Part shown: positions 40,601 to 61,136 of the stretch, piece by piece
Numbering within the stretch: position 1 is the stretch's first letter
How the letters are laid out: every line of letters begins with the position of its first letter
Assembly: GCA_048940925.1 (NCBI GenBank)
Contig: JBHLOC010000007.1
Coordinates: 32,001-96,000 of the forward strand
Source: Promethearchaeota archaeon
GTDB lineage: Archaea > Asgardarchaeota > Lokiarchaeia > Sigyniarchaeales > SOKP01
Reading direction: 5' to 3'
Length of the DNA stretch: 64,000 nt
Program-made: the position numbers and the translations under genes
Notes under the pieces: generated by a model
Databases searched by the model: none
What the model was told of the DNA's origin: nothing
What the model saw: the letters and a program-made list of their open reading frames with translations, nothing else

Positions 40601-42455
40601 ATGGGACGATGGATTTGCAGGAAATTATTGGGATGATTACACAGGTATAGATGCAAATATTGATGCGATAGGTGATAATTCTTACACAATTCGTGGTTTA
40701 GCTTATAATAAAGATAATTATCCGTTAATTTATCGAACTGATATTGATACTGACGGAGATGGTCTAATAAATTACGAAGAATATGTTTTAGGAAAAGATC
40801 AATACCGCACTAATGTTACAAATCCCGACACAGATTATGATGAATTATCTGATTATTGGGAATGGAAAAATTCTACTAATCCATGGAATCCAGACACTGA
40901 TTTTGACAGAATGCCTGATGGGTGGGAAGTATTCAATTTTTTAAATCCTATATCCGGAGATGATAATATCACTGATGCTGATAATGATTTTCTCTTGAAT
41001 GTATATGAATTCAAGAATGGCACTGATCCAAATAATGAAGATACTGATGGAGATACATTTTTGGATGGTATTGAGGCTGGTGCTTTACCAGAATATAACT
41101 GGTGGACAGATCCCTTGAATAAGTGGTGGTATCCAATGCCTAATCTAGTGGCTGTAGGTTTTCAAATAACTTCTGCTGAATTAGGAAAACCATTTGTTTT
41201 AAACATAACGATAAAAAACGATGGAATCTGGGATGTAGAAAATATAACAATCATCATTTGGGTTGAGTATTTGGGACAAGCTTTATATAACAATTCTGAA
41301 AATCCTATTCCATTATTAGAAGTGGATGAGGTGTATCAAGATTTTATTCAAAGTGACATACTGCCAAGTGAGAAAATTCCTCAAGGAGGGCGTTTGGTTA
41401 TGGAATTAAGATTAGATCCTGAAAATGTAATTAATGAAACTTACAGTAATAAAGATGGATCTGCTCGACACAGAAGTGAAGATGATAATATCCTAGAAAC
41501 AATCTTGAATATTGGTGGACAATTACCTGGTGGTGGTTTTGATATCTTTTGGATTATTTTAATTGTAATTGGAGTAATAGCTCTAGCGGGAATTACAAGT
41601 ACTTATATGGTTTTAAGACCAAGAATGAAAAGAAGAGCTGCTTTTAAAAGACAAATTGAAACAGCGAAAACGGATATTAATAACTTTGAAATCAATATGC
41701 GTAGTTTTATTAAAACAAAATTAATAGACACTTACGAATCCAGATGGTGGGATGAAGGAGTCCCTGAATACATTAGAACCCCCATTGGAACCAAAATAAA
41801 AACCTTGAAACCAAAGAAACCAGGAGTGCCAATCGATAGAATGGATTTGTTAGATTTCACACATTATAGTGCGATAATCACACAAAGAGATAATTGGGAA
41901 CATACATTCTCAAAAATCTTTCCCGAAAGAGGCGTGGTTGACACAAATTTCGAAAACCTAAGAATTATTAAAAGAGATCTTGCTGAAGGTACAATTACAC
42001 GTGAACGGTTATCCAGTTATTCATTATTTCTACATAATATAACAAATTTCTTTAGAAAAGGATTCAATGTGTTTTTAAGCTACTCCACACTCGATACAGA
42101 ATACTTTAATGTTAAGGAAATCGCTAAACGTTTAGAATCATTTCCAGAAATTGATAGAGTCTTTTTCTGGGAAGAAGATAGTGGCGAAAACATCGTCACC
42201 TATATGGAAAGGACTTTAGCAATGACAAAGGCATTTGTATTCTTTTGCACGGAACATTCTGTTAGATCTAAGGCAGTAGAAGATGAGTGGCAAGCAGCTT
42301 TTCAGATGAGGAAAAAAGGACTGCTAAAAATAGTACCTGTATATGAAAATGAAAATATAATTCCCTTCTTATTGATGCCCTTATTAAATGTCAAATACAC
42401 AAAAGATGATTTTGATGGTTTTATTCAAAAGCTTTATGAGGAAATTCTTAGATAA
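37662..42455 (+). CDS. Single-pass receptor-like protein: beta-helix (NosD) ectodomain, DxDxDG Ca-binding repeats, CARDB-like Ig, TM, Swt1-like HEPN, C-terminal TIR
   Basis: N-terminal hydrophobic signal; many GI.L..S.NN.I..N repeats; DTDGDG/NPDTD repeats; PNL...I.N.G...LDPEN.I.E; TM IFWIILIVIGVIALAG; E..MRSFI...WW..VP...DF..II...NW..F; TIR VFLSYS...VFF...S.AV..EW...IVPV. Confidence 0.88.
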   Translation: MKQKRRILTLIILALILFSFSNIQFFLKFFPNYHDNNEDEISELNSAKYWPNLNRIHIDDSNTSLNWATTAANNDWCNGSGTWSDPYIIKNVIIDGQERESCILIKNSNVFFIIENCTVYNTGDEGKFSEEPGIKLINTNNGTFISNNCSLNHYGIRLFNSDNNTFLNNMITKNEFKGITLEDSSNNTFAGNEISNNYLDGIVLESNSDHNNISQNKLYNNFGSGLSLMSGDNNTINNNDIFKNREYGIFLEAGRENTIKENAMKKCGIGISPSEEINTNIIDTSNTVNGKTFYIYFNQTDLDNSDFSSPRLAGQIILIKCNDSIISNFNLSQTSIGLILYECQNNTISNNLVNNCTKSGFYLNFCNNNTIYNNSVNYNFDGIELFGCINTRINRNNATNNKWNGIKLSENCVFNIIHGNNASNNIETGIYTEYCESNNITKNLVLNNERAGIRIKASHFTLIQNNTANNNINTRVINFGVGIQIGETGSFEQSNNNTITENIMNNNSYVGLFLDGKNNTITKNNFTNCGLIFGYYSDITTIDDFSSQTIDRSNLVNNKILYYYFNSTHLSNDNFSNAGQVVLVRCNDSLISNLQLERASLPISSYYCDNITISNNNLTENTFSGIYLIQNSNSNISNNQLNTNINIYLEVSTVITFGFGIYLEDCYNCNFTFNNATNNGYGIYLKDSNNILIKNNTFYDNNIAGISILANQPGKCDDINFSANYMRNCGVYIYESPYLQNSKLYIDKTNLINNRPLHYFSNTNSLKSSDFINPGQIILLNCNNSEISNLSFSRCTIGISLFYCHNASVYNINSSKNSMYGFVLVLSNNCHLFNNTASQNLFGIFNVFCFNNTYTGNTLKNSKSIFIDNLYFGGGICSMWYNDNLNIVRNTFENCSNGIMIYLEGPGIFFNVSDNLLDNNIQYGIWLKNCHNSTFTKNKIQNNGIGIYLDFYSDNSNNSFLYNNLNGNDLNAQDNGDNNKWDDGFAGNYWDDYTGIDANIDAIGDNSYTIRGLAYNKDNYPLIYRTDIDTDGDGLINYEEYVLGKDQYRTNVTNPDTDYDELSDYWEWKNSTNPWNPDTDFDRMPDGWEVFNFLNPISGDDNITDADNDFLLNVYEFKNGTDPNNEDTDGDTFLDGIEAGALPEYNWWTDPLNKWWYPMPNLVAVGFQITSAELGKPFVLNITIKNDGIWDVENITIIIWVEYLGQALYNNSENPIPLLEVDEVYQDFIQSDILPSEKIPQGGRLVMELRLDPENVINETYSNKDGSARHRSEDDNILETILNIGGQLPGGGFDIFWIILIVIGVIALAGITSTYMVLRPRMKRRAAFKRQIETAKTDINNFEINMRSFIKTKLIDTYESRWWDEGVPEYIRTPIGTKIKTLKPKKPGVPIDRMDLLDFTHYSAIITQRDNWEHTFSKIFPERGVVDTNFENLRIIKRDLAEGTITRERLSSYSLFLHNITNFFRKGFNVFLSYSTLDTEYFNVKEIAKRLESFPEIDRVFFWEEDSGENIVTYMERTLAMTKAFVFFCTEHSVRSKAVEDEWQAAFQMRKKGLLKIVPVYENENIIPFLLMPLLNVKYTKDDFDGFIQKLYEEILR

Positions 42456-42564: not shown

Positions 42565-44145
42565 ATGGTTGATAGAGTAGTACCATATCTAATTAATATG
42601 GATGAAGTAACTCCTGTCCGCTCTCAAGCATCATTATTAAATGAATTAGCAATGGCGTTAATTGAGTGTATATCAATTAATAGTAAAAAACTAAAAAAAT
42701 TAGGCAAAATATCTAAAATTTCAACAGCATTTTGGCCAGTTCGTTTAGTCCCGTTGAGTGATACGAGAGCATGCGTATTTAGTTATCTATTAAACAAACA
42801 AGAGAAGTTAAGTGTTGGTAAATGGGCGCAGATGCCTCCAAAACCAGAAAACATTATTAAGGGAGCAGATCCAGAATCATTTTTAAGCTCATTACAAAAT
42901 TATAATAATACTTATTTAAAAAAAAGCAAAAATTTTAAACGTGGAACTGTAATACAAGAAGCTTTATTTAATGCTAGCGAAGTTGAGTATTTTCAGAATT
43001 TTTTCTTAAACCAATATAGTTTAGGTTCTCATTCAACACCTTATTTTCTATTAGAAGGTGGACCTATCGCAAAAAGTGTAAATCAAACCAAAATTGTTCC
43101 AGAAATTATTGAGTTTGTCTCTCAAAAAGATATTGAAATACTTGATAAAATTGAAGACGGTATTATGAAATTATGCGAACGGTGGGTTCAAAAAGGCTCT
43201 AAGGAGGTTGATAAAATAAGAGATACTAAAGTTGATACAAGTGAAGAAGAAAAGAATTTATCAATTCTAAATAAAGAATTGCAAGCAGAAAAAGAAGAAG
43301 AAATAGAAAAAACACCAGAAGAACTAGTCAAAATAGGAAAGTACAAGGTAAATGATAAAACTGGAGAATTAAATAATGATCTTAGCTCACTTAAAAATAG
43401 TGTTGATGGCATGAAAAATGCTATTAATCAAAGAGATCTTTTTTTAGTAGAAGAAGGATTAAAAGAAATTCAACTAAAGTATCAGGAATTAGGAAATTCA
43501 ATCAGTCGCTACAATACTGAAATTACACAATTAAGAAAAAATATCCAACGTGAGATTTCTGACACTGAAAGAGCAAAACAACAAAGAGTCCGAGAATTAG
43601 AACGAAAAAAAGCTGAAGTGGAAAAACAAATAGAAGCTAAACATTCTGGTTTAAGCAGAGATTTAACTTCCGCAGAAGATATCATAGCAGCTATAAAAAT
43701 TGAAAAACAATCTTGTTTAGATAATCTTGAATCTGTAAAAGATATAGAAATGACGAATGTTCAGAATTTCTTTAATAGCTATTCACTTGCATTAAAGACA
43801 CAAAATGTTATAGTTGGTATCCCGATTTATATCTTCTATTTCGTAGATCCTAATACAAATAGGACTACAGAAAGATCTCCTGTACTTCCTATATTGATTG
43901 AAAAAGGGAAAACCGTAAGCACTAAAGTTAATGCAAGTTTCAGGCAGAAATTACGAAATCTAATGAATAAGGATAATGCAATGATAGATTTGGTTGAAAC
44001 TCAAGGCGATAAAAATAATATAATGGAAATAAAAAATCTAGACACTCGACTTGAAGATGCAATTAATGATTTGCGAATTCGAAAGATATTGAAAAAAGGT
44101 CAAGCTGAAACCGCTAAAGATTTAATTGCTAATCTTATCTGGTAA
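42565..44145 (+). CDS. Hypothetical protein with long central coiled coil
   Basis: Heptad-rich E/K/L/I central region flanked by globular ends (AFWPVRLVP; GIPIYIFYF); no TM. Confidence 0.75.
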   Translation: MVDRVVPYLINMDEVTPVRSQASLLNELAMALIECISINSKKLKKLGKISKISTAFWPVRLVPLSDTRACVFSYLLNKQEKLSVGKWAQMPPKPENIIKGADPESFLSSLQNYNNTYLKKSKNFKRGTVIQEALFNASEVEYFQNFFLNQYSLGSHSTPYFLLEGGPIAKSVNQTKIVPEIIEFVSQKDIEILDKIEDGIMKLCERWVQKGSKEVDKIRDTKVDTSEEEKNLSILNKELQAEKEEEIEKTPEELVKIGKYKVNDKTGELNNDLSSLKNSVDGMKNAINQRDLFLVEEGLKEIQLKYQELGNSISRYNTEITQLRKNIQREISDTERAKQQRVRELERKKAEVEKQIEAKHSGLSRDLTSAEDIIAAIKIEKQSCLDNLESVKDIEMTNVQNFFNSYSLALKTQNVIVGIPIYIFYFVDPNTNRTTERSPVLPILIEKGKTVSTKVNASFRQKLRNLMNKDNAMIDLVETQGDKNNIMEIKNLDTRLEDAINDLRIRKILKKGQAETAKDLIANLIW

Positions 44146-47340: not shown

Positions 47341-48861
47341 ATGAAAAATATGAATATTTCAAAATTTTTAATAATAAGAATTGTTTATGGTGTTATTTTG
47401 GCATTGTTTATAACACTTGCTTTTTTTCCATACTTTTCTGTAACTTATACATACGGACCACATTCTTATACAGAATATTCTTATGGATTTTTTGAATTGC
47501 TTTTTGGAGGTTGGGTTGGAATAGGGCTTATTGGTGCATCAGTTATTCTTTTAAATTCACAAAAAATAATCAAACCAATACTCTTTGGGATTTCTGGATC
47601 TGTCATAATATTGATTAATTTGATTATCCGCACTCGCATTCTCGGGATGACTCTCGAATTAAGTTATTATGTGAGTATTGTATTACTGATTAGTCTATTC
47701 GCAATAAACATATTATCATTTGTATATAGAGAAACAAAAGTTGTAGTAAAATTTATTCCAAAAAAGAAAAGAATTAAGATCGAGGAACCAGAAGAATTAG
47801 AAATTGATTGGGAAAAGAGAAAAGAAGAAGAGGCAAAACAAATTTTGAAAGAACTTCAGCTTAAAATGATAGATGCTGATAATCTAATTAAAGAACAAAA
47901 GATAAAAGTAGCACTAAAAAGTTTAAATAAAATTAAAGCAATAGCTAAAAATCATAACTTAATTGAGCTTTTGGACGAATCAAAATCAAAAATCATTCAA
48001 TGTAAAGAATTGGAATCAGAAATAAAGAGGAGAAAAAAACAACTTAAAGTTAAAGGTAAACTTGAGAAAAGAATATCAAATGTTGAAGTTTTAATCGAAG
48101 ATTATGAATTAACTAAAGCATTGGAAAATTTAATCGAAATTAAGCAGATAGCAAAAACTAATGAAATTTCTGATTTATTAGGAATTATTGAAGACAGAAT
48201 CAGATATTGTAAGAGTTTAGAAACAGATACAGTTAATAGAATCAAAAATACAATTTTAAACTATGCAACAAAGCTTACTCGCCTTGAACTTGTAGATATC
48301 AGTGAAAAAAGTGGAATAAAAGATGAAAATTTAATTGAGAATGTGATTCTTGGAATGATTAGGAATAAAGAAATCAATGCTGAATATTTTTCAAGTTCTA
48401 AATCAATCGCATTTTATAAAGAGGAAAAAGAAGCAGTTCCTAAGCCAAAACTAAAGGAAGAAAAAGTTCTTAAAGTTTTCTTAAGTTATTCTACGTTAGA
48501 TGCTGATCATTTCAGGATCTCTGATATTGTTAATAATTTAGAAGAATTCTCAGAAATTGGAAAGGTTTCATATTGGCAAGCAGATAGTAAACAAAACATT
48601 GTTGAATTTATGGAGGAAACTCTTAAAGATTGCGATGTTTTCGTGCTGTTTTGCTCTGAAAATTCAAGAGGATCAAAAGCAGTAAAAGATGAGTGGCAAG
48701 CTGCCTTTCAAATGAGGAAAAAGGGATTACTGAAGATTATTCCCGTCTATGAAGAAGAAGAGCTTATTCCCGTCTTATTATGGCAGATGCTTAACGTTAA
48801 ATTTACAAAGGATAATTTTGATGGATTTATCCAAAGGCTTTATGAAGAAATTTTAAGATAA
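47341..48861 (+). CDS. 4-TM membrane protein with helical repeats, PCI-like winged helix and C-terminal TIR
   Basis: Four N-terminal TMs; two amphipathic helical repeats; RLELVDISEKSG...IENVILGMIRNKEINAEY; VFLSYST...SKAVKDEWQAA. Confidence 0.85.
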   Translation: MKNMNISKFLIIRIVYGVILALFITLAFFPYFSVTYTYGPHSYTEYSYGFFELLFGGWVGIGLIGASVILLNSQKIIKPILFGISGSVIILINLIIRTRILGMTLELSYYVSIVLLISLFAINILSFVYRETKVVVKFIPKKKRIKIEEPEELEIDWEKRKEEEAKQILKELQLKMIDADNLIKEQKIKVALKSLNKIKAIAKNHNLIELLDESKSKIIQCKELESEIKRRKKQLKVKGKLEKRISNVEVLIEDYELTKALENLIEIKQIAKTNEISDLLGIIEDRIRYCKSLETDTVNRIKNTILNYATKLTRLELVDISEKSGIKDENLIENVILGMIRNKEINAEYFSSSKSIAFYKEEKEAVPKPKLKEEKVLKVFLSYSTLDADHFRISDIVNNLEEFSEIGKVSYWQADSKQNIVEFMEETLKDCDVFVLFCSENSRGSKAVKDEWQAAFQMRKKGLLKIIPVYEEEELIPVLLWQMLNVKFTKDNFDGFIQRLYEEILR

Positions 48862-48887: not shown

Positions 48888-51875
48888 ATGGTAATATTAT
48901 TGCTTAAGAATAAAAAAAAGAATTTAACACTCTTATTTAGTTTTTTTATCCTATTCATTATCATCAATCTTAACAGCCGTTATAATAATTTCAATATACC
49001 TGTTAATAAAAATTTTGAAACCGATAAAAGAACTAATTTGAAAGAGCTTAAGACATCAACGATCTATTATGAAATTACAATTAACGATCTTCTAACATCT
49101 AATACTACAAATATGGGTAATTGGACCTGGGCAAGAACTCAACCTTGGTGTACTCAAGGATCAGGAACTTCAGAAGACCCTTATGTAATTGAAAACAGCA
49201 CATTTACAAATTCTTCATTATATGGTGCAGGTCTTAGTATTTATAATTCAAGAAGATATTTTATTATCAGAAATTGTACATTTAAAGATGCGCCTTTTGG
49301 TATTCATCTTTGGTATGCCACAAATGGGACAATTATTAAAAATAAAATGCATAACAACTGGGAAGGTATATGGGCAATTAGAAGTGATCAGAATATTATA
49401 TCAGAAAATAATGTAACCAACAATGGTATTGGCATTCGAATGTGGATGGGATGTGATAATATCAATATCACTAAAAATATCGTATCAGAAAGCAGTTATC
49501 TTGGAATTTATGTGGATTATGGCCACAATTGTCTTATTTCAGAAAATATAGTAAATGACAATAAAGCTAATATGGGGATTGGTTTATATAATTATAGTTC
49601 TAATAATTTGGTTGTAGATAACACTTTAGAGCGAAATGTAGATGGAATTAATATAGGCTGGGCTTATAATACTACGATTGCTAACAATATTTTGAATGAA
49701 AATAATCATACTGGACTTTATATGAAATTGAGTAAAAATATCACAATTTTAGGTAACATTTTAGAGGATAATAATGTTAGTGGAATTATTTTGGAAAGTG
49801 GTAACAATAACACAATTACAGGAAATGTAATAGAACGTAATAACATCAGTGGAATTGAGACTATGGGTGGGTTTAATTTTAACCATATCTATGAGAACTA
49901 CTTTATCATGAATGGAAAACATGCAATTGAGAAAGGATCGAATAATGACTGGAATAGCACTACAATTGGTAATTATTGGGATAATTATACAGGTTTAGAT
50001 CCAGATCAGGATGGAATTGGTAATATCCCTTATAATATTAGTTTATCGCCTTTAATCCAAGACCATTTACCAATTGTAGACAATGAACCGCCATTTATAA
50101 GAATTGATTCCCCAAAGCCTGGTGATAAATTTAGTTTTAATGCCCCAAGGTTTAGTGTTTCTATAATTGGTGAAGATCCTTATTCTATGTGGTATACTTT
50201 GGATGGAGGGTTAAACAACTACACATTCACGGAAAATGGTAAAATAGATCAAACAGCTTGGGATGCTCTACCCTCAAGTACAATTACTCTTAAATTTTAT
50301 GCGCGTGATAAACCATGTAATATTGGGACTTCAGAGGTTTCTATAATAAAGGACATCGAAGTTCCAAACATAATAATTAATTCACCGAGTTCTAATGAAA
50401 TTTATGGTAATAAAGCACCAAATTTCAAAATTTCCATTGATGATCCAAATTTGGATTCTATCTGGTATACTTTAGACAACAATCTAATGATTCTAACTTA
50501 TGAAAAGAATGGTACAATTAGTCAAAATATATGGAATGGATTTGGAAATGGAACTGTTACTATCAAATTTTATGCAAATGATACTCTCGGAAATTTAGGT
50601 ACAGCAGATATTAATATAAGAAAAGACATAATTTCACCCATAATAACAATTAAAAACATTGAGGAAAATCAACGATTTGGTAAGAAGCCTCCATCTTTTA
50701 ATGTCTCTATAAATGAACCAAATTTAAACCTAACATGGTATTCAATATATAATGGTACTCAATGGTCTCAAGAGATCATTTTTACAGAACTAATAGGCAA
50801 TATCGATAAAGTATTATGGAAATCATTACCTAAAGGAAATGTAACAATTAGGTTTTACGCTAGCGACTTAGCAGGGAATATTGGGTTTGAAGAGATCTTA
50901 TTCATTAAAAGCTATAAAGAAATCCTCTCTCCAACTGGAGTAGTTATTTTAATCACTGTCATTGCTATTAGTTCTACAGTGGTAATAAGTGGCACGATTG
51001 TATGGAAAAAGAAAAAATTCTCAAGGAAATTAAAAGAAGGAGGAAAAATAGAAGATAAAAAGATACCTAAAATTAAAAACATAGTCCAAAAAAGAATGAT
51101 ATTAATTGATAACTTAATCCAAGAACAAAAATTAAAGGAGGCGATTAAACATTTAAATCAGATTAGAGAGATAGCCCAAATTTATGGATTAAAATACTTA
51201 TTGGCGAATATCCAAGAAAAGTTAGACGAGTGTAAAAAAATAGAATTAGATACAATTAATTCAATTAAAAAAGCAATAAACGATCTAGGAAGGAAAAATC
51301 TTCGCTTTCAAATTGTAGAAATTAGTAAAAAAAGTGGTGTTAAAGATGAGAAGATAATAGAAGACATAATTCATGAGATGATTAAAAATAAAGAAATTTC
51401 TGCTAAATATTATCCAAAGTCTGACACAATCGTATTAAGTCTAATGTTATTTCCTGTATTAAAGCTTAAAGAAATGAAGGAAATCAACTTGTTTTTAAGT
51501 TATTCAACCCTAGATTCAGAATACTTTCAGATACCCAAAATTGTTAGATATTTAGAAGAATATCCTGAAATTGGTAGGGTCATGTTTTGGGAAGCTGATA
51601 GTAAAGCAAATATAGTAGAATATATGGAAAAGACTTTGAGAATTACAAATGTGTTTGTATTGTTTTGTTCTGAAAATTCAATGAAGTCTGCTTCTGTAGA
51701 AGGAGAATGGCACGCAGCCTATCAAATGAACAAGGAAGGACTTCTAAAAGTTATATCTGTTTATGAAGATAAAGACCATATTCCAAGGTTATTATGGCCT
51801 TTATCAAATGTTAAATACTTAAAGGAAGATTTTCATGAATTTATTCAAACTCTTTTTAGAGTAATTATGGAATAA
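48888..51875 (+). CDS. Single-pass receptor-like protein: NosD beta-helix, 3 Ig-like repeats, TM, PCI-like domain, TIR
   Basis: Signal; GSGT..DPY.IEN; GI.....NN.I..N repeats; GNYWD; three WY[TS]-containing Ig-like repeats; TM; LFLSYST...SASVEGEWHAA. Confidence 0.88.
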   Translation: MVILLLKNKKKNLTLLFSFFILFIIINLNSRYNNFNIPVNKNFETDKRTNLKELKTSTIYYEITINDLLTSNTTNMGNWTWARTQPWCTQGSGTSEDPYVIENSTFTNSSLYGAGLSIYNSRRYFIIRNCTFKDAPFGIHLWYATNGTIIKNKMHNNWEGIWAIRSDQNIISENNVTNNGIGIRMWMGCDNINITKNIVSESSYLGIYVDYGHNCLISENIVNDNKANMGIGLYNYSSNNLVVDNTLERNVDGINIGWAYNTTIANNILNENNHTGLYMKLSKNITILGNILEDNNVSGIILESGNNNTITGNVIERNNISGIETMGGFNFNHIYENYFIMNGKHAIEKGSNNDWNSTTIGNYWDNYTGLDPDQDGIGNIPYNISLSPLIQDHLPIVDNEPPFIRIDSPKPGDKFSFNAPRFSVSIIGEDPYSMWYTLDGGLNNYTFTENGKIDQTAWDALPSSTITLKFYARDKPCNIGTSEVSIIKDIEVPNIIINSPSSNEIYGNKAPNFKISIDDPNLDSIWYTLDNNLMILTYEKNGTISQNIWNGFGNGTVTIKFYANDTLGNLGTADINIRKDIISPIITIKNIEENQRFGKKPPSFNVSINEPNLNLTWYSIYNGTQWSQEIIFTELIGNIDKVLWKSLPKGNVTIRFYASDLAGNIGFEEILFIKSYKEILSPTGVVILITVIAISSTVVISGTIVWKKKKFSRKLKEGGKIEDKKIPKIKNIVQKRMILIDNLIQEQKLKEAIKHLNQIREIAQIYGLKYLLANIQEKLDECKKIELDTINSIKKAINDLGRKNLRFQIVEISKKSGVKDEKIIEDIIHEMIKNKEISAKYYPKSDTIVLSLMLFPVLKLKEMKEINLFLSYSTLDSEYFQIPKIVRYLEEYPEIGRVMFWEADSKANIVEYMEKTLRITNVFVLFCSENSMKSASVEGEWHAAYQMNKEGLLKVISVYEDKDHIPRLLWPLSNVKYLKEDFHEFIQTLFRVIME

Positions 51876-52038: not shown

Positions 52039-54999
52039 ATGATAAAAAGAAATAGATATTGTCTTGTTTTACTTTTTCTAATAGTTATATTTAATATTAT
52101 TCCATTGATTAGATTCAATTTCAATGAACCTAATAAAAAAATTATTATTACTGATGAGGATTTTCATGCTAAAATCAATTCTGTAAAAACATCAAATCCA
52201 ATAGTTTTATCGGACGGATTTGCGGGTATAGAATGGAATGATGATATTAGTCAAACTCCTTCAATCGTCATAGATACTAATGGCACTATTCATGCAGTCT
52301 GGTCAGACTTTACTAATGGTCCGTGGGGTAATGATCCTGAGATAATGTATGCAAATTATTCCTCTTCACTTGGATTATCTTATGCTACAGTCATTTCTGA
52401 TGGATATAATGGTGATTATTGGAATTCGGGTGGTAGCTATTTTCCAGATATTGCTATCGATAATTATGGAAATATTCATGTTGTTTGGTATGATGATACT
52501 GATGGTCAATGGGGCACTGATGAAGAAATAATGTATGTGAATTACACATCTTCCGCTGGTTGGTCAAATGCCACTGTAATTTCGGATTTATATGGTGGAA
52601 GTGTATGGAATAATCGTTATAGCAGGGATCCTTCAATTGCTATAGATAATATTGGAGGAATTCATGTTGTTTGGAATGATGATACTGATGGCGAATGGGG
52701 AACTGATACAGAAATAATGTATGTAAATTATACATCTTCCACTGGCTGGTCAAATGCTTGTGTCATTTCGGATTTATATGGCCAAATTAAATGGAATAAT
52801 GATTTTAGTGAGAATCCTTCAGTTGCTGCTGATAATATTGGAGGAGTTCATGTAGTTTGGCGAGATCTCACTGATGGTCTATGGGGCACTGATCCTGAAA
52901 TAATGTATGTAAATTATACCTCTGATTCTGGTTGGTCAAACATTACTGTAATTTCGGATGGATTTGGGGATAAATATTGGAATAATGAGTGGAGTGACTA
53001 TCCTTCAATTACAACAGATAATTTTGGAGGAATTCATGTTGCTTGGCAGGATGATACTGATGGTGAATGGGGAACTGATACCGAAATAATGTATTGTAAT
53101 TATACATCCTCAAATGGATGGTCTAATGCTTCGGTTATCTCAGATTTATATGGAGGAATTGAATGGAATGATGGTTATAGTGGTACTCCTTCAATTGCTA
53201 CTGACAATATTGGAATAGTCCATGTAGCTTGGGTTGATGGAACTGCTGGTCCATGGGGAAGTGATGGGGAGATAATGTATTGTAATTATACATCTTCAAA
53301 TGGATGGTCTAATGCTACAGTAGTTTCTGACGGATTTGATGGGACATATTGGGATACAGGTGCGAGTGGTAATCCTTCAATTGCTATAGATAATGCTAGA
53401 ACTATTCATATAGTATGGCAAGATGATTTTGCATTATGGTGGGGTCCTGATTCTGATATAGTATATATTTTCATTGATAATATCGTTCCAGTTATTTCAA
53501 TAAAAAATCCTACTCCAAACCAATTTTTCGGAATAGCTCCTCCAAATTTTAGTATAGAAATTAGTGAAGATCGTTTGGATAGAATTTGGTATATTTTGAA
53601 TGATGATATAAAGACTTTTATATCTAAAAGCAATGGTACAATAAATCAAAATGTATGGGATAGAATTTATAATGGAACTATAACTATCATTTTTTATGCA
53701 AATGATACTGTAGGAAATTTAGGTTCTGCAAATGTTAAAATAAGAAAAGATTTAATTTCTCCTATAATAATAATTAACAATATTGAAACGAATCAACGGT
53801 TTGGTAAAGAATCTCCATCTTATAGCTTATCTATAAATGAACCAAACTTAAACATATCATGGTATTCAATATATAATGGTACTCATTGGTCTCAAGAGTT
53901 TATTTTTACTGAACTAGAAGGAAAAATTAATCAGTTATTATGGGATTCATTACCTAAAGGAAATGTAACGGTTAGGTTTTATGCTAATGATTTAGCGGGG
54001 AATATTGGATTTGAAGAGATCTCAATTATTAAAAGCTATAAACAAAATAAATTTCCTATTGAATTAATTGCTTTAATTTCAGTTATTGCTATTGGGTCCA
54101 CAATAGTATTAAGTGGTGTAATAGTACGAAAGAAGAAGATTTTTACTAAGATATCAAAAAAAGAAGGAAAGATTGAAGCTAAAGAGTTAATCAAAGATAA
54201 AAATTATCTCCAAAAAAGAAGGTTGTTAATAGATGATTTAATAAAAAGAAATGAATTTAAAGAGGCGATTAAAAATTTAAACCAGATTAAGGAAATAGCC
54301 CAACGTTATGGATTAAAATATCTATTGACGAATACCGAAGAAAAAATAGATGAATGTAAAAAATTAGAATTGGAAACTATTAAATCCATTAAAGAGATAA
54401 TAAAAAATTTAGGTAGGAAATATATTCGCGTACAAGTTGTAGAGATTAGCAAAAAAAGTGGCATTAAAGATGAAAAAATGATAGAAGATATAATTCATGA
54501 AATGATTCAGAAGAAAGAAATTCTTGCCAAATATTATTCTAGTTCTAAAACAATCACATTTGGCCTAATGGTAATCCCTGTATTGAAGCCAAAGTTAAAA
54601 AGGAAAAATGATGTATTTTTAAGTTATTCAACCTTAGATTCAGAATACTTTCAGATACCCAAAATTGTAAAAAGTTTAGAAGAATATCCTGAAATCGGCA
54701 GGGTTATGTTTTGGGAAGCGGATAGTCAAGCAAATATCGTAGAATATATGGAAAAAACTTTGAGAATTACGAATGTTTTTGTATTGTTATGTTCTGAAAA
54801 TTCTTTCAAGTCTGAATCGGTAAAAGGTGAATGGCAAGCAGCTTATCAGATGGATAAAGAAGGCCTTTTGAGAATTATCCCTGTTTATGAAGTTCAAGAC
54901 CACATTCCCCGGTTATTATGGCCTTTACCAAGTGTCAAATATATAAAAGATGATTTTGATATATTTATTCAAAATCTTTATAAAACAATTTTAGAATAA
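52039..54999 (+). CDS. Single-pass receptor-like protein: 7-repeat beta-propeller, 2 Ig-like repeats, TM, PCI-like domain, TIR
   Basis: Seven ~62-aa repeats VISD...WN...S..PSIA.D..G.IHVVW.DDTDG.WG.D.EIMY; TM; VFLSYST...SESVKGEWQAA. Confidence 0.88.
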   Translation: MIKRNRYCLVLLFLIVIFNIIPLIRFNFNEPNKKIIITDEDFHAKINSVKTSNPIVLSDGFAGIEWNDDISQTPSIVIDTNGTIHAVWSDFTNGPWGNDPEIMYANYSSSLGLSYATVISDGYNGDYWNSGGSYFPDIAIDNYGNIHVVWYDDTDGQWGTDEEIMYVNYTSSAGWSNATVISDLYGGSVWNNRYSRDPSIAIDNIGGIHVVWNDDTDGEWGTDTEIMYVNYTSSTGWSNACVISDLYGQIKWNNDFSENPSVAADNIGGVHVVWRDLTDGLWGTDPEIMYVNYTSDSGWSNITVISDGFGDKYWNNEWSDYPSITTDNFGGIHVAWQDDTDGEWGTDTEIMYCNYTSSNGWSNASVISDLYGGIEWNDGYSGTPSIATDNIGIVHVAWVDGTAGPWGSDGEIMYCNYTSSNGWSNATVVSDGFDGTYWDTGASGNPSIAIDNARTIHIVWQDDFALWWGPDSDIVYIFIDNIVPVISIKNPTPNQFFGIAPPNFSIEISEDRLDRIWYILNDDIKTFISKSNGTINQNVWDRIYNGTITIIFYANDTVGNLGSANVKIRKDLISPIIIINNIETNQRFGKESPSYSLSINEPNLNISWYSIYNGTHWSQEFIFTELEGKINQLLWDSLPKGNVTVRFYANDLAGNIGFEEISIIKSYKQNKFPIELIALISVIAIGSTIVLSGVIVRKKKIFTKISKKEGKIEAKELIKDKNYLQKRRLLIDDLIKRNEFKEAIKNLNQIKEIAQRYGLKYLLTNTEEKIDECKKLELETIKSIKEIIKNLGRKYIRVQVVEISKKSGIKDEKMIEDIIHEMIQKKEILAKYYSSSKTITFGLMVIPVLKPKLKRKNDVFLSYSTLDSEYFQIPKIVKSLEEYPEIGRVMFWEADSQANIVEYMEKTLRITNVFVLLCSENSFKSESVKGEWQAAYQMDKEGLLRIIPVYEVQDHIPRLLWPLPSVKYIKDDFDIFIQNLYKTILE
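52195..53470 (+). repeat. Seven intragenic ~186-bp tandem repeats encoding propeller blades
   Basis: Recurring gatgatactgatgg..tggggN and gaaataatgtat units at ~186-bp spacing; boundaries approximate. Confidence 0.85.
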
Positions 55000-55140: not shown

Positions 55141-58080
55141 ATGAAATTAAGTATTAAAATAGAGAAAATGAAAAGAATCACCCTTATTTTATTATCTATG
55201 ATTGTCATATTTAGCATTGTTTCATTAATCAAATTTGACACAAAAGAACCTATACACATAAAAAATGGAAATGATGATGATTTTAATATTGAATTAAGCT
55301 CTGTAAAATATACAAATGGAACAATTATTTCTGATGGGTTCAATGATGTGTATTGGAATGATCAACTAAGTAGTTCTCCTTTAATTGCTATTGATATCTA
55401 TGGAAACCTCCATGTTGTGTGGCATGATGATACTGATGGTCCATGGGGTGTTGATTCTGAAATAATGTATGCAAAATATTCAATATCAGCGGGTTGGTCT
55501 AATGTTACTGTAATTTCGGATTTGTATGGCTGGAATGATGGTGATAGTGTAAAGCCTTCAATTGCTACGGATTCAAATGGTAATGTTCATGTAGCATGGG
55601 AAGATGATACTGATGGTCCATGGGGTATTGACTCTGAAATAATGTATGCTAATTATTCTTCATCTGTTGGGTGGTCTAACCCTGTTGTAATTTCAGATTT
55701 ATATGGCGGAGTTGAATGGAATGATGGGAATAGTGGGAATTCTTCGATTGCAATAGATAATGATGGAGATATTTATGTAGTCTGGGATGATAACACAGAT
55801 ACAATATGGGGTCCCGACTCAGAAATAATGTTAGCAAAATTTTCACCTTCAATTGGTTGGTCTAACGCTAGTGTGATCTCAGATAATTTTGGGGGTCAAT
55901 CTTGGAATGATGGCTGGAGTAGAGATCCTTCAATTGCTATCGACAACGATAAAAACATTCATGTTGTATGGCAAGATGATACTGACCATGGTTCGTGGGG
56001 TACTGATACTGAAATTATGTATAGAAAATATGTTTATTCATGGTCTATGTGGACTAATGATACTGTAATATCGGATACTTGGTGGGTTCAAAGTTGGAAT
56101 GATGGTTATAGTGGAAATCCTTCAATTGCAATAGGTGAGTTTGGATTCCCACATATTGTATGGATTGATGATACTGATGGCGAATGGGGCACTGATATTG
56201 AAATAATGTATATAGCGCAACCCTATGATAATGCTACTGTAATCTCGGATGGATTTGAAAGTGTATATTGGAATGATGATTTCAGTGGTTATCCTTCAAT
56301 TACTACCGATATTGATGGAAACGTTCATGTAGTATGGTTCGATAATACTGATGGCTCGTGGGGGATTGATTCTGAAATTATGTATGTAAAATATTCTTCC
56401 TTAAGTGGGTGGTCTAATGCCACTGTAATTTCGGATGGATTTGGAGGCATATATTGGAATGATGATAATAGTAAGAATCCTTCTATTATAACAGATCAGA
56501 ATGGAAATATCCATGTAGTGTGGGAAGATGATACAAATGGAAAATGGGGTATGGATACCGAGATAATGTATATCTTTACCGATTATCCCGCTCCAGTTAT
56601 TACTATAAATAATCCAAGGTCAAATGAGATTTTTAGATCTCTAGCACCAAGCTTTAATATTACTATTAAAGAGTCAAATTTAGACACGTTTTGGTATACC
56701 CTTGATGGAGGTATAACAAATATTACGATCACAGAATTCATAGGAACGATTAATCAAATAGAGTGGGACAAGATTGGAAGATCTACTGTGGAATTAACTT
56801 TTTATGCGATTGATGTTGTGGGAAATATTGGTTTTCAATCAGTTATTATTGAAAAAGCTATTGATTATTGGCAAGTAAATCCAATTATTATTGATGACAA
56901 GGGAACTGGAGATTTCACTTGGTCTGAAGTAGCAATGCAGGGATGGTGTACCGGTTCTGGAACTTCAACAGATCCTTATATTATTGAGTTTTTAAAAATT
57001 GATGGGCAGAATGGCTATAATTGTATTGAAATTAGGCATTCTAAAGTTTTTTTCGTAATTGGAAAATGTCTTTTGTTTAATTCTGGAACAGGATCAAGAT
57101 TTGCAGGATTTAATTTATTCAATGTTTCTAATGGAATTTTGACTGATAATAATTGTTCTTATAACAATGGATACGGCACAATTATAATGAATTGCTCATA
57201 TATCACTATAACAGAAAATGAAGTGAATAATAATGAAATTGGTGGGATATATTTAGAATCTAGCCGTTTTATCAACATTTCAAATAATAAAGATACTATA
57301 AGTTACAATGGATTATATGGAATCTATTTAATATTTAGTAATGATAATACGATTACAGACAACACTATAAACTACAATCAGAATGGTATTTACTTGTATA
57401 GATCTAATGATAATACTATAATAGGAAATAAACTTATTGGGAATAAAGTACCAATTACAGAAATTGAATGTAGTGGAAATATTATTAAAGGCAATAGCAT
57501 TGGTATAAAGAAATTTCCCATTGAATTTTTAATAATAATTGGTACTCTAATAGGTATTACAATAATATCTAGTGCTATTATTTTATTGAGGAAAAAGATC
57601 TTTAAGAAATTATTTCCTAAAAAGGGTGGAATAATCAAAGAGAAAGGCAAAAGAATTTCTGTAACTAAAATTGGAGAAAAGCATAAGCTTAATGTGTTTC
57701 TAAGCTATTCTACTATAGATTCTGGATATTTTCAGATACCAAAAGTAGTACAACATTTAGAAAAGTATCCTGAAATTGACAAAGTTTCAAGCTGGGAAGC
57801 TGATAGTAAGGAAAATATAGTAGAATTTATGGGAAAAACTTTAAAGGACACTGATGTATTTGTGTTATTTTGTTCTGAAAATTCTGTTAATTCTGAATCT
57901 GTTAAAGGTGAATGGCAAGCAGCTTATCAATTGAATAAAGCTGGTCTTTTAAAAATAATTCCTGTATACGAAATTCAAGAACATATTCCTCGATTGTTAT
58001 GGCATATATTAAATGTAAAGTATTCAAAAAAAGATTTCAATGGATTTATTGAAAATCTTTATCATGAAATATTAAGATAA
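55141..58080 (+). CDS. Single-pass receptor-like protein: 7-repeat beta-propeller, Ig-like repeat, NosD beta-helix, TM, TIR
   Basis: Seven propeller repeats like those of 52039..54999; CTGSGT..DPY module; TM FLIIIGTLIGITII; VFLSYST...SESVKGEWQAA; no PCI-like insert. Confidence 0.88.
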   Translation: MKLSIKIEKMKRITLILLSMIVIFSIVSLIKFDTKEPIHIKNGNDDDFNIELSSVKYTNGTIISDGFNDVYWNDQLSSSPLIAIDIYGNLHVVWHDDTDGPWGVDSEIMYAKYSISAGWSNVTVISDLYGWNDGDSVKPSIATDSNGNVHVAWEDDTDGPWGIDSEIMYANYSSSVGWSNPVVISDLYGGVEWNDGNSGNSSIAIDNDGDIYVVWDDNTDTIWGPDSEIMLAKFSPSIGWSNASVISDNFGGQSWNDGWSRDPSIAIDNDKNIHVVWQDDTDHGSWGTDTEIMYRKYVYSWSMWTNDTVISDTWWVQSWNDGYSGNPSIAIGEFGFPHIVWIDDTDGEWGTDIEIMYIAQPYDNATVISDGFESVYWNDDFSGYPSITTDIDGNVHVVWFDNTDGSWGIDSEIMYVKYSSLSGWSNATVISDGFGGIYWNDDNSKNPSIITDQNGNIHVVWEDDTNGKWGMDTEIMYIFTDYPAPVITINNPRSNEIFRSLAPSFNITIKESNLDTFWYTLDGGITNITITEFIGTINQIEWDKIGRSTVELTFYAIDVVGNIGFQSVIIEKAIDYWQVNPIIIDDKGTGDFTWSEVAMQGWCTGSGTSTDPYIIEFLKIDGQNGYNCIEIRHSKVFFVIGKCLLFNSGTGSRFAGFNLFNVSNGILTDNNCSYNNGYGTIIMNCSYITITENEVNNNEIGGIYLESSRFINISNNKDTISYNGLYGIYLIFSNDNTITDNTINYNQNGIYLYRSNDNTIIGNKLIGNKVPITEIECSGNIIKGNSIGIKKFPIEFLIIIGTLIGITIISSAIILLRKKIFKKLFPKKGGIIKEKGKRISVTKIGEKHKLNVFLSYSTIDSGYFQIPKVVQHLEKYPEIDKVSSWEADSKENIVEFMGKTLKDTDVFVLFCSENSVNSESVKGEWQAAYQLNKAGLLKIIPVYEIQEHIPRLLWHILNVKYSKKDFNGFIENLYHEILR
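55315..56580 (+). repeat. Seven intragenic tandem repeats encoding propeller blades
   Basis: Same unit as 52195..53470 with small indels in blades 2, 4 and 5; boundaries approximate. Confidence 0.85.
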
Positions 58081-58547: not shown

Positions 58548-61136
58548 ATGAATTATGGTGGAATTATGGAAGTAGAACAACGTAAGATTTATGAAGAACA
58601 AATTAATAAGTATAAGGAATTACGTCCGCTTTATAAACAGTATAGTAAGATTTTGAAAAAAATATTGGATAATTTAGTTTGTGGTTGTTCGTCTGAATTT
58701 ATTATAGAACGAAGAGTCAAATCTATTTCTGGTTTTGCAAATAAAATATTCAATCCCGAAGAAACATATACTAATCCTATTTTGGAAATAAAAGATTTAT
58801 GTGGGATTCGGATTATTCTTCCTAATATTAGTGAAATGAATGCTGTTTGTAACGTTATTCGTGATAATTTTATTGTTGATATCACTGAAAGTAGTGAGAT
58901 AATTGGACCAAGTACAGGTATGGATATTTTAGAGCATTATCGCACATATATAGTCCAGCTTATCCCAACATTAAGTCTTTATGAGAGATTAAATTTGAAA
59001 ATTCCTGATGAAATTTTTAATTTAAAAGCAGAAATACAAGTTCGCACCTATCTTAGTCAGGGTTGGGCAGCAAATCAAGATCAAATTTTCAAAAAGTATG
59101 AATTTAAAGTACCAAGAGCGTATGAACAGGAATTTAGTCGCGTAAAATCATTATTAACGATTGAAGATGATGCTTTAGATAATATTATGAAAAAAATGCA
59201 GGATTACAAATCAATATATGGTGCTTATATGTCAAATGAAAAAATAAAATCAGAGATTGAAAGATTAGAGATGGTTTATGAAGCAGATAAAAGTAATTAT
59301 GAAATAGGTCATAGAATAGCAAAATTAGCAATGACAGTTAACAATATGGATAAATCTATAGAAATTTTAAATGAAATCATTAATAATCCTGAATTTAAAC
59401 AAGCTCCTGCTATAGAAATTGCTAATATATTGCGAGATTTTGGAACTTCACATCATATAAAATATAAAAAAGAGCCACGGGGTGCAAATTTCTTAAAAGG
59501 ACAATCTTACTTAAAAGAAGCAGTTCAGAAAAATCCTCTTGATTATGATGCGTGGTCATCTTTAGGGGGGACCTATAAAGACCAAAAAAACCTTGATAAG
59601 GCATTAGAATGCTATAAACAAGCATTAAAAGTCAATCCTGGTGATCCTTATCCATTAGGGAATTATCTAGTTTTAAATATTCAACAAACAGGAAATTTAT
59701 TACATATTGAAAAAAACCATGAAATGATTAAAAAAGCGATTGAAAAAAGGTTAAGACAAGTAGAAGTTATGGTAGACATGCCTTGGGCTTATTTTGATTT
59801 AGGGTTGTTTAATTTATTTTTAGGAAACCTACATTTAGCTCTAGATAATTATTTGAAAGGAATTCGATTCAGCCCGAATATTTGGATGATTGAAACTACA
59901 TTAAATACCTTAAATAATCTTAATATTGTTCAAAATAAGTTAGAAGGCATAAAAACCGTAAAACATTTATTACTGCTAGGAATATATTTTCATCCGAATC
60001 TTGAAGAAAAAACTGAAAAACTGTTAGAGGAAACTATTCTTAAATTAGATGCTGACTTTGACCAAAAAGAAAAAGATTTTGGTGATTCTATAGTTATTAT
60101 AGCTGGAGGAACAGATGAGCGAATAGAAAGAAGCCTGGATGCTATAAGAAATAATCTAATTGAGTCCTTTAGCGATTTTGGATGCACAATTATCTCAGGA
60201 GGCACAAAATCTGGTATTAGTAAGATAGTAGGAGATATACAAGAAAAATACCCAAGTAATATTAAAACGGTTGGATATATCCCAAGTCATATTCCCGCTC
60301 ATGTAGAATTGGACAAAAGGTATTCCGCAATCCATATTACAGAAGGAAAAGATTTTAGCATCTTGGAACCTTTGCATTATTGGTATGATTTAATGAAATC
60401 TGGAATTGAACCGAGTAGAATTAAACTTATTGGAATCAATGGAGGAAATATTGCGGCTTTTGAGTTTCATGTTGCGATTGTATTTGGAGCGCAAGTGGGT
60501 ATAATGAAAAATAGTGGTAGAGCATCTTCAGAATTAATTAACGATCCTAGCTGGGAAGAACCAACGGGACCTGAATATGGCTATAAACCAAAGAAATTGA
60601 TTAAAGTTTTGAAAAATTCAACAGAAGATATTTATAACTTTTTGACAAAGCCATTTATAATTGATCCTGATATAGATAATATTCAAAAGTTACTTATACA
60701 ATATCGAGAAAGCGGAGCAGATATGTATGAATTAAATTTTACCTCAGAAGAAATCGATAATACTATATTTTCTGGATTTTTAACGGCCTTGGATCTTATC
60801 GCAAGCCAAGAATTAAAGGTAGGCGAAATTGTATCAATAAAGTTCAGTGAAGGTCATTTGACTGGAGGATTCTTTACTAATAAGGAATTTAAAATAGTAT
60901 TTTTACTAAATGAGACACCCTCACCATCGTTAGAAGAAAAAATTACTGATTATATAAAAGAGGTAGAAAGTAAATTAGGTGAACATTTTCATACTCTACA
61001 ACAAAGTTGTCGGGGTTATCTTGGGGGTAAAGAGATGAATATGATTCTTTCAAATATCTTTGGTTCAGAAATTTTAAAATTTGTAGACACAAAATTCGAG
61101 CAAGAATCTTCAGAACTAGTTCAAGTGCCTGAATAA
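58548..61136 (+). CDS. Multidomain signalling protein: RelA/SpoT-like nucleotidyltransferase + TPR + SLOG + longin-like domain
   Basis: RVKS...K, DLCGIRII, EIQVRT...WA; TPR (AWSSLGGTY....DKALECYKQALKVNP); SLOG-like AGGT, ISGGT.SGI...VG, VGY.P, GG..A..E, SGR.S..L; C-terminal FSGFLTAL longin-like fold. Confidence 0.8.
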   Translation: MNYGGIMEVEQRKIYEEQINKYKELRPLYKQYSKILKKILDNLVCGCSSEFIIERRVKSISGFANKIFNPEETYTNPILEIKDLCGIRIILPNISEMNAVCNVIRDNFIVDITESSEIIGPSTGMDILEHYRTYIVQLIPTLSLYERLNLKIPDEIFNLKAEIQVRTYLSQGWAANQDQIFKKYEFKVPRAYEQEFSRVKSLLTIEDDALDNIMKKMQDYKSIYGAYMSNEKIKSEIERLEMVYEADKSNYEIGHRIAKLAMTVNNMDKSIEILNEIINNPEFKQAPAIEIANILRDFGTSHHIKYKKEPRGANFLKGQSYLKEAVQKNPLDYDAWSSLGGTYKDQKNLDKALECYKQALKVNPGDPYPLGNYLVLNIQQTGNLLHIEKNHEMIKKAIEKRLRQVEVMVDMPWAYFDLGLFNLFLGNLHLALDNYLKGIRFSPNIWMIETTLNTLNNLNIVQNKLEGIKTVKHLLLLGIYFHPNLEEKTEKLLEETILKLDADFDQKEKDFGDSIVIIAGGTDERIERSLDAIRNNLIESFSDFGCTIISGGTKSGISKIVGDIQEKYPSNIKTVGYIPSHIPAHVELDKRYSAIHITEGKDFSILEPLHYWYDLMKSGIEPSRIKLIGINGGNIAAFEFHVAIVFGAQVGIMKNSGRASSELINDPSWEEPTGPEYGYKPKKLIKVLKNSTEDIYNFLTKPFIIDPDIDNIQKLLIQYRESGADMYELNFTSEEIDNTIFSGFLTALDLIASQELKVGEIVSIKFSEGHLTGGFFTNKEFKIVFLLNETPSPSLEEKITDYIKEVESKLGEHFHTLQQSCRGYLGGKEMNMILSNIFGSEILKFVDTKFEQESSELVQVPE

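Follow-up and report, generated by a model that had tools for sequence, protein, structure and literature searches.

A RelA/SpoT-TPR-SLOG-longin protein encoded beside TIR receptor genes in Lokiarchaeia: a candidate effector of Thoeris-like signalling

Does a Lokiarchaeial protein that joins an alarmone-synthetase-type domain to a SLOG domain read a messenger made by the TIR receptors encoded next to it? The question is raised by a 64,000-nucleotide stretch of a Promethearchaeota archaeon genome (GenBank assembly GCA_048940925.1, contig JBHLOC010000007.1, positions 32,001 to 96,000 of the forward strand), the whole of which is referred to hereafter as the window. The gene in question (58548..61136, + strand) encodes an 862-aa protein, P0001, and lies downstream of a run of TIR genes. 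An initial annotation proposed that P0001 is a RelA/SpoT-TPR-SLOG-longin fusion responding to an ADP-ribose-type product of the TIR receptors, and allowed that the linkage could be coincidental. We find that the four domains are present, that residues characteristic of the SLOG and TIR domains are conserved, and that TIR genes adjoin homologues of P0001 across the class. We favour, with a probability of about 0.6, a Thoeris-like signalling system running from TIR to SLOG to effector, with a role in conflict or immunity.

P0001 is encoded by the sole long frame at its position. Since homologues begin MEVEQR and M7 is nearly invariant, the true start is probably Met7, at 58566. The protein is made up of a RelA/SpoT nucleotidyltransferase domain of the small-alarmone-synthetase type (residues 1-232; 58548..59243, +), recognized by Pfam, a family profile and motifs; a TPR region recognized by Pfam (residues 233-495; 59244..60032, +); a SLOG domain of the LSDAT/TRPM type, recognized by Pfam and model fold (residues 496-691; 60033..60620, +); and a domain of longin/roadblock fold, recognized by predicted-structure matches (residues 692-862; 60621..61133, +). 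Pfam scores and structural matches of AlphaFold models confirm the proposed four-domain fusion, and all the motifs on which it was based were located in the protein: RVKSISGFANK (56-66), DLCGIR (83-88), EHYRTYIV (129-136), EIQVRT (162-167), WAANQD (173-178), ISGGTKSGISKIVG (549-562), NGGNIAAFE (631-639), NSGRASSEL (655-663) and IFSGFLTAL (740-748). Scans with NCBIfam, PADLOC and Atlas added little beyond Pfam; PADLOC matched P0001 to one candidate model only, PDC-S33, over residues 12-107 at the N-terminus.

Pfam RelA_SpoT (PF04607) matched residues 56-175 with 36.9-39.1 bits (cut-off 27). A profile of the 232 N-terminal residues, built from 29 homologues, matched RelP/RelQ-type small alarmone synthetases in the PDB (3l9d, 2be3, YwaC and YjbM/RelQ; E 4e-18 to 6e-13) and CapRel (E 1e-7). 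The RxKxxxSxxxK, DxxGxR and EIQ(I/V)RT signatures occur in P0001 at residues 56-66, 83-88 and 162-167. In the 29-sequence alignment, from which seven members with obviously degenerate sites had been excluded, six residues (K58, D83, G86, E162, Q164 and T167) do not vary and three more (R56, K66 and R88) hardly do; motifs for ATP binding and for metal binding or catalysis are kept in P0001. P0001 is the only RelA_SpoT protein and the only LSDAT protein encoded in its genome, an assembly rated 100% complete in which no HD_4 alarmone hydrolase was found. With P0001 as the sole RelA_SpoT protein and no such hydrolase, a housekeeping stringent response is unlikely in this organism.

The TPR region matched TPR_1 at E 2e-13, with repeats around residues 315-370, and gave a weak match to the TPR-S sensor-type model of Pfam. 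For the domain that follows, LSDAT_prok (PF18171) scored 28.9 bits over residues 515-666 when residues 480-700 were scanned alone, and 23.9 bits on the whole protein, against a cut-off of 25.4; most homologues carry PF18171 in precomputed annotation. An AlphaFold model of the domain from a 36-sequence alignment had a predicted local distance difference test (pLDDT) score of 91.5. In a structural search other than Foldseek, all 26 matches with Z of at least 9.6 were SLOG-superfamily proteins, among them the TRPM2 MHR1/2 region (Z 14.6 and 14.1) and the ThsA SLOG domain bound to 3'cADPR (Z 10.1). The top Foldseek match was TRPM2 MHR1/2 with ADP-ribose-type ligands (8e6v; E 9e-8, TM-score 0.61). 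Among the 50 Foldseek matches listed, 48 were TRPM channels, in the MHR1/2 region, and two were the SLOG-fold molybdenum cofactor (MoCo) carrier protein 2iz5. A sequence profile of the domain also found TRPM2 MHR1/2 as its best, albeit weak, match in the PDB (6co7, E 0.04). All members of the 36-sequence alignment share the second Gly of AGG and the GG of GINGG, while the Gly-Gly-Thr of SGGT and an acidic residue are at least 90% conserved. Both Pfam family and fold therefore bear out the assignment of the middle domain to SLOG.

The 171-residue C-terminal tail had no Pfam or NCBIfam match, even at E 10 or 1, and Atlas feature scores on it were below 0.9. Its model (pLDDT 83) has the order beta-beta-alpha-beta-beta-beta-alpha, with the last ~15 residues predicted to be disordered. 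The best match was to TRAPPC (7b6d_C; Z 11.2, root-mean-square deviation 3.1 over 125 residues). Structural matches ranged in VIA Z from 11.2 to 8.0 over 95-133 residues, the best Foldseek match having an E of 1.5e-4 and a probability of 1.0. They included BLOC-3, Fuzzy, synbindin, AP sigma/mu, the VAMP7 longin domain, Mon1-Ccz1, MglB and LAMTOR, together with Lokiarchaeial roadblock (Z 9.9) and longin structures. The longin-like C-terminus seen in the initial annotation is upheld at the level of fold by these model matches. A paralogue of the tail (E 1e-7, at about residues 500-610) occurs in two ~700-aa proteins encoded on contigs C11 (L006 97-2127, +) and C52 (L007 1228-3345, -) of the same genome, neither of which has a Pfam domain at E 0.01.

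A word-based search for homologues of P0001 returned 56 relatives, all of them assigned, where named, to Lokiarchaeota or Promethearchaeota. This number falls far short of the family, for which an exhaustive profile search gave 1,764 cluster representatives at E <= 1e-30. The top 150 profile matches score 520-1360 bits, most spanning the RelA/SpoT domain into or through SLOG. In a sample of 55 relatives, RelA_SpoT was found in 54, RyR in 45 and LSDAT_prok in 32, with NUDIX in two and HD_4 in one. Judged by these domain matches, P0001 is no isolated Asgard fusion and belongs, as one branch, to a large family composed mostly of RelA/SpoT-TPR-SLOG-RyR proteins. One member came from a Myxococcales metagenome-assembled genome (MAG), and a scan with the single protein P0057 gave four loci. 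Three C-terminal states were seen: none (~669 aa), RyR (830-1,000 aa, common) and longin (~840-870 aa, in a Lokiarchaeial clade that includes P0001). Forms devoid of RelA/SpoT also exist, as TPR-SLOG-longin (707 aa, G061) and SLOG-longin (383 aa, G023/G024). The longin-bearing proteins form one clade, with a Shimodaira-Hasegawa-like approximate likelihood ratio (SH-aLRT) of 97, in a tree that is a quick IQ-TREE run, midpoint-rooted and with long branches flagged.

The TIR array reported directly upstream of P0001 is real, and five proteins encoded in the window, all on the + strand, carry C-terminal TIR_2 domains; the whole genome yielded only eight TIR matches. The nearest is a 979-aa receptor (55141..58080) with an N-terminal transmembrane (TM) or signal segment, a NosD/beta-helix ectodomain and a TM helix at 797-815, whose gene ends 467 bp upstream of that of P0001. 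Next come a 986-aa receptor (52039..54999) with an N-terminal TM or signal segment, an ectodomain and a TM helix at 677-695, a 995-aa receptor (48888..51875) with a NosD/beta-helix ectodomain and a TM helix at 684-702, and a 506-aa protein with four TM segments (47341..48861). The last, a 1597-aa NosD/beta-helix receptor with a TM helix at 1293-1311 (37662..42455), is the syntenic TIR partner in relatives that do not have the inserted array (L001/L017, L014, L020 and L022). The 4TM-TIR architecture is also found directly upstream of homologues in G101, G063, G090 and G102. Apart from the 506-aa protein, each of the five has a large ectodomain behind an N-terminal hydrophobic segment, then a single TM helix and the TIR domain on the cytoplasmic side.

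The linkage was surveyed in 161 genomes of the class, which were searched for the reader protein (P0001 or a homologue) and for TIR_2, and 38 neighbourhoods were mapped by domain queries, an iterated TIR hidden Markov model (HMM) and Pfam, with contigs added for distant homologues. The iterated HMM was checked against Pfam; an HMM made from the TIR domains of the window alone missed the TPR-TIR clade. Seven loci are cut by contig ends. At 22 of the 26 evaluable archaeal loci a TIR or TIR-like (DUF4062) gene is no more than 5 kb away, mostly as the next gene upstream on the same strand, and the same holds for two of four bacterial loci. Given ~494 TIR matches in the 161 genomes and assuming ~3.8 Mb per genome, we estimate chance adjacency at ~1% per locus. 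The 65%-identical relative L001 has, in this order, a NosD-TM-TIR gene (1638 aa), a 526-aa gene, the reader and an aminotransferase gene. The absence from L001 of the four-gene block between the 526-aa gene and the reader indicates that this block is an insertion in the window.

The partners are of at least seven different sensor architectures. In the longin clade they are TM beta-helix-TIR or 4TM-TIR proteins, whereas the 669-aa clade is preceded, at 45-50 bp, by one to three tandem ~800-aa soluble MalT-like-TPR-TIR proteins. The G061 gene is preceded by a DUF4062-AAA_16-TPR (STAND-type) gene and followed by one for an LRR protein whose C-terminus gives a weak TIR-like match; P0041 is paired with DUF4062-LRR, P0047 with NHL-fn3-TIR and a RyR-domain protein, and P0045 with a TIR gene beside E1/E2/JAB genes. 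The Myxococcales protein has an Asp-protease-TIR gene 16 bp upstream. Because partner architectures differ between branches, inherited synteny alone is insufficient to account for the link. The transmembrane receptor form envisaged for the TIR partners therefore holds for the longin-bearing clade, and fails for the 669-aa clade, with its soluble TPR-TIR proteins, and for the STAND/LRR-DUF4062 branches.

Distribution is patchy, with a homologue in 33 of the 161 genomes surveyed and, within the genus, in 20 of 53; every genome of the genus with an intact homologue has TIR genes. In G074 the reader gene carries a stop and the TIR gene is reduced to a 79-aa fragment. Reader remnants consisting of N- and C-terminal pieces only were seen at L041 8528-9321 (G062) and L042 8506-8901 (G055), between the 526-aa gene and the aminotransferase gene and with no TIR gene beside them, a case of gene decay at the syntenic site. 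In G146 the reader and the upstream 4TM-TIR genes are each split into two open reading frames (ORFs; L022 8492-11211 and 11339-13476), perhaps by an in-frame TAG or a frameshift, as a result of either real decay or assembly error.

The TIR domains are of a catalytic type as far as their residues tell. All 14 of the TIR domains aligned, drawn from both archaeal TIR clades, have a Glu at the alpha-C catalytic position, which pairs in profile-to-PDB alignments with the Glu of Cat1 and of TLR2; tir-1 and SARM1, which are NADases, were among the profile matches. Pfam ThsB_TIR reached its cut-off for the 506-aa protein only (24.1 versus 21.2). In the system we propose, sensor proteins ending in such TIR domains, here membrane receptors with beta-helix or propeller ectodomains, would detect a cue and convert NAD+ to an ADP-ribose-derived messenger. 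The TRPM-type SLOG domain of P0001 would bind this messenger, and binding would relieve a restraint imposed by the TPRs, or drive oligomerization, to switch on the N-terminal RelA/SpoT-type pyrophosphokinase. The ancestral output would plausibly be ATP-consuming pyrophosphorylation of a nucleotide or tRNA. Since P0001 is the genome's only RelA/SpoT protein and no alarmone hydrolase accompanies it, a toxic or growth-arresting reaction, as in the toxic small alarmone synthetases (toxSAS) and CapRel, would be more likely than a stringent response. In the Lokiarchaeial clade, the longin-fold tail gained at the position of RyR in bacteria would be an added module for dimerization or partner docking. 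Given the changed acceptor site in the clade of P0001, output there may involve a different acceptor or have shifted to the tail.

Several observations weigh against this proposal. The 467-bp spacer between the array and the P0001 gene contains an oppositely oriented small ORF, which makes co-transcription with the TIR array unlikely here. The genes downstream of P0001 are metabolic (aminotransferase, BKACE, methyltransferase), so that the locus is no obvious defence island, and PADLOC models gave no match to the four TIR proteins tested. Receptors with large ectodomains are unusual as antiviral sensors. Four archaeal loci (L003/L004, L051, L033 and L036) have no TIR gene within the available flank, and neither do bacterial loci L057 and L059 among the four examined; the archaeal exceptions comprise P0031 and P0037, each adjoining a metallo-beta-lactamase-fold gene instead, and two G150/G156 loci. 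The synthetase of the P0001 clade, judged by its motifs, may be altered or inactive as an output, since the acceptor-binding G-Y-x-S-x-H motif and the His residues of the WA..H motif are replaced and further catalytic residues (Arg, Glu and Asp of the catalytic motifs) are gone in some members (P0030, P0032, P0037, P0039, P0046 and P0047).

This last point leads to a possible variant, rather unlikely and compatible with the Thoeris-like reading, in which the RelA/SpoT domain of the P0001 clade is a pseudo-enzyme or an ATP-binding regulatory module, and output is through the longin tail or through sequestration of the messenger. In P0001 the acceptor motif G-Y-x-S-x-H is replaced by L-E-H-Y-R-T, and the H..WA...H..YK motif reads QGWAANQDQIFKK, its His residues replaced; both are canonical in the 669-aa and RyR-bearing relatives and in the earliest longin-clade branches (P0040, P0041 and P0043). 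The degeneracy noted in the initial annotation is thus right for the clade of P0001, the older branches retaining G-Y-x-S-x-H. On the tree, the loss falls in the inner part of the longin-bearing clade. Members in which further catalytic residues are gone are still full-length proteins with SLOG and tail, and the forms with SLOG and longin domains but no RelA/SpoT point the same way. Moreover, identity among closer homologues is higher in SLOG (60-92%) and the tail (54-87%) than in the N-terminal domain (52-86%). Against a pseudo-enzyme, the nine residues from R56 to T167 listed above are invariant or nearly so in most members, P0001 included, which suggests that ATP/Mg2+ chemistry has been retained; by these motifs, the P0001 site is unchanged on its ATP/Mg2+ side and altered on its acceptor side. 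The canonical acceptor motif in P0040, P0041 and P0043 further argues that the tail is not a simple replacement for catalysis.

A second alternative keeps the wiring of TIR receptor, NAD-derived messenger and SLOG, and replaces immunity with physiological sensing. Surface receptors would report environmental or cell-contact cues, and P0001, using a dedicated nucleotide signal or a partner bound to the longin domain, would adjust metabolism or membrane and cytoskeletal behaviour. Partners in the longin clade do look like receptors, with signal or TM segments, beta-helix, propeller or Ig ectodomains and cytoplasmic TIR domains; a family-5 solute-binding protein is encoded inside the array; flanking genes are metabolic; and small GTPases of Asgards and eukaryotes have longin and roadblock domains as their regulators or platforms. 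Mapping of the 38 loci revealed no conserved GTPase neighbour, though a partner may act in trans; the fragment P0044 gave a possible GTP_EFTU match. Patchiness within one genus, gene decay and the fast turnover of partner architectures do not fit a physiological role well, and conflict systems are typified by TIR copies that lie in tandem and diversify. In other branches the partners are STAND, LRR or CARF proteins bearing TIR or DUF4062, and one bacterial member lies beside a Hachiman system. We therefore regard physiological sensing as unlikely.

The SLOG domain might instead be an enzyme, a LOG-like nucleotide N-glycosidase or processing activity directed at the TIR or RelA/SpoT product, rather than a passive receptor. 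Its top structural match is LOG-like (TM1055, 1rcu; Z 17.2), several LOG enzymes follow, and its GG....E motif resembles the PGGxGTxxE of LOG; LOG, the MoCo carrier protein, DprA, YpsA and ShosA were among the other structural matches of the model. By sequence the domain belongs to LSDAT, and its best PDB profile and Foldseek matches are to TRPM MHR1/2. Members of the LSDAT/TRPM clade are known to bind ligands rather than to act as enzymes, and the precedent of ThsA SLOG is a receptor, so that an enzymatic SLOG is quite improbable. That P0001 works independently of TIR proteins and adjoins them by coincidence, an idea prompted by the lack of the four-gene array in L001 and favoured by the four archaeal loci with no TIR within reach, is highly improbable and close to refuted by the neighbourhood survey, since L001 keeps a TIR domain on its 1638-aa neighbour two genes upstream and the class-wide cross-tabulation places TIR neighbours of unrelated architectures at 22 of 26 archaeal loci and at the Myxococcales locus.

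Three further genes of the window deserve mention. A 526-aa protein with no TM segment and no firm Pfam match (42565..44145, +) shows weak DUF4407/coiled-coil-like matches only, and its gene is syntenic with that of the reader in the longin clade; its membership of the system is doubtful, because it persists where the SLOG gene has decayed (L041 and L042). The small ORF divergently upstream of P0001 (58094..58276, -) encodes a Cys-rich product of ~55-60 aa with the pattern IPELxCxxCG..CC..LLCCCSxECGYQPIPECCG, which shows codon-like conservation in 11 related loci and persists in L041, where the reader gene is a remnant only. A 1-nt difference in an A-run removes, both in the window and in G103, the ATG or GTG start seen in relatives, and an internal ATG would give 33 aa. 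The family-5 solute-binding protein (842 aa; 44582-47110, +) has N-terminal and C-terminal hydrophobic segments, and no transporter genes lie beside its gene.

Neighbours of other family members were also recorded. At one of the four bacterial RyR-type loci a TIR gene is adjacent, and at another a CHASE2-TIR gene lies 4 kb away in a Hachiman-containing island. The RyR-type genes lie downstream of a vWA gene and a Tubulin_2 gene at L047 1222-7985 and L059 1-6932, followed in L047 by the Asp-protease-TIR gene and in L059 by a gene for an 813-aa protein without domain matches. At L052 2340-7054, a 555-aa protein with an N-terminal TIR domain adjoins ThiF (E1-like), Prok-JAB and UFC1-like (E2-like) genes and is divergent from P0045. 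At L037 5369-6841 (G156), Cas_APE2256 (CARF-type) with DUF4062/TIR is encoded near a TPR-SLOG gene devoid of RelA/SpoT and a separate longin-like ORF. A gene for a 220-aa metallo-beta-lactamase-fold protein lies close upstream of the reader in two TIR-less loci (L003 8284-8946 and L051 6108-6770), and shows a weak Anti-Pycsar Apyc1-like match in both.

A 2025 survey defines Thoeris types I-XI and 29 predicted types, with effectors that include DNases, RNases, phospholipases, hydrolases and pore formers (10.64898/2025.12.03.692087). No alarmone-synthetase effector was found in the accessible parts of its main text and supplements. Nor did the portions available of that survey, of two Asgard defence surveys (PMC11291487, PMC13700489) and of papers from the Aravind group contain a description of a RelA/SpoT-SLOG effector of TIR systems, and an earlier prediction may exist. 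Should TIR products activate a RelA/SpoT-type enzyme by way of a TRPM-type SLOG, Thoeris-like signalling would acquire a new effector class, and the archaea closest to eukaryotes would offer a TIR pathway open to experiment. Messenger sponges of a Tad2-like kind are encoded by Asgard viruses, with no known Thoeris found in the predicted hosts, which are Kariarchaeaceae and not Lokiarchaeia (PMC13700489). Systems like that of P0001 could be the kind of target at which such sponges are directed.

The co-occurrence of a TRPM-type SLOG and RyR in the parent family ties two modules of eukaryotic channels responsive to (cyclic) ADP-ribose to prokaryotic NAD-derived signalling, and the Lokiarchaeial receptors share the ectodomain-TM-TIR layout of Toll-like receptors. 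A more speculative extension, which we hold to be rather doubtful, is a Lokiarchaeial pathway in the style of Toll-like receptors, read by a TRPM2-type SLOG with re-targeted alarmone chemistry and a longin platform, the TRPM and RyR modules deriving from one prokaryotic TIR-effector family. It would consist of diversifying surface receptors, an enzymatic cytoplasmic TIR and a NAD-derived messenger, sensed by the SLOG type that gates animal TRPM2 with ADP-ribose. Since bacterial relatives carry RyR at the position of the longin tail, the eukaryotic SLOG and RyR modules would, on this scheme, share one prokaryotic origin.

Among known systems, the closest in layout are type I Thoeris (a ThsB TIR with a SIR2-SLOG ThsA) and type III, in which one SLOG effector gene likewise adjoins one or more TIR genes; type III is reported to place several TIR genes beside a single effector (10.64898/2025.12.03.692087). 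As in Thoeris, the TIR domains linked to P0001 keep the Glu at the catalytic position and vary in copy number and type, and the SLOG model aligns with 3'cADPR-bound ThsA SLOG. The P0001 SLOG differs in being of the LSDAT/TRPM family, where that of ThsA is of the STALD family, and the effector is of RelA/SpoT type with TPR and longin additions rather than SIR2. Its TIR partners are large membrane receptors or TPR/STAND/LRR sensors, whereas ThsB proteins are small. PADLOC models gave no Thoeris match, and the match to NCBIfam ThcA had an E of only 0.17.

The N-terminal domain keeps the RxKxxxSxxxK, DxxGxR and EIQVRT motifs of RelP/RelQ and the toxSAS enzymes (CapRel, FaRel) and, like CapRel, is fused to a C-terminal regulatory part. 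It differs from small alarmone synthetases in that the G-Y-x-S-x-H motif and the His of WA..H are replaced in the P0001 clade, from CapRel in that the regulatory part is TPR-SLOG-longin, pointing to sensing of a small molecule rather than of a protein directly, and from RelP/RelQ and toxSAS in that its host is an archaeon without other RelA/SpoT homologue genes. TRPM2 MHR1/2 shares the Pfam LSDAT family with the P0001 SLOG, and was its top PDB profile and Foldseek match, but is only 14-19% identical to it, and P0001 has no channel. The tail shares fold and strand order with longin and roadblock proteins (TRAPP Bet5/Trs23, Mon1-Ccz1, Fuzzy, LAMTOR, MglB and Asgard proteins), from which it differs in having no sequence-family match, an identity of 5-19% and a fusion to a nucleotide-signalling protein. 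The bacterial RelA/SpoT-TPR-SLOG-RyR proteins, an uncharacterized family whose members JGI annotates as 'ppGpp synthetase/RelA/SpoT-type nucleotidyltransferase', are true homologues of P0001 over the RelA/SpoT, TPR and SLOG domains. They have canonical synthetase motifs and a C-terminal RyR domain, where the clade of P0001 has a degenerate acceptor motif and a longin fold.

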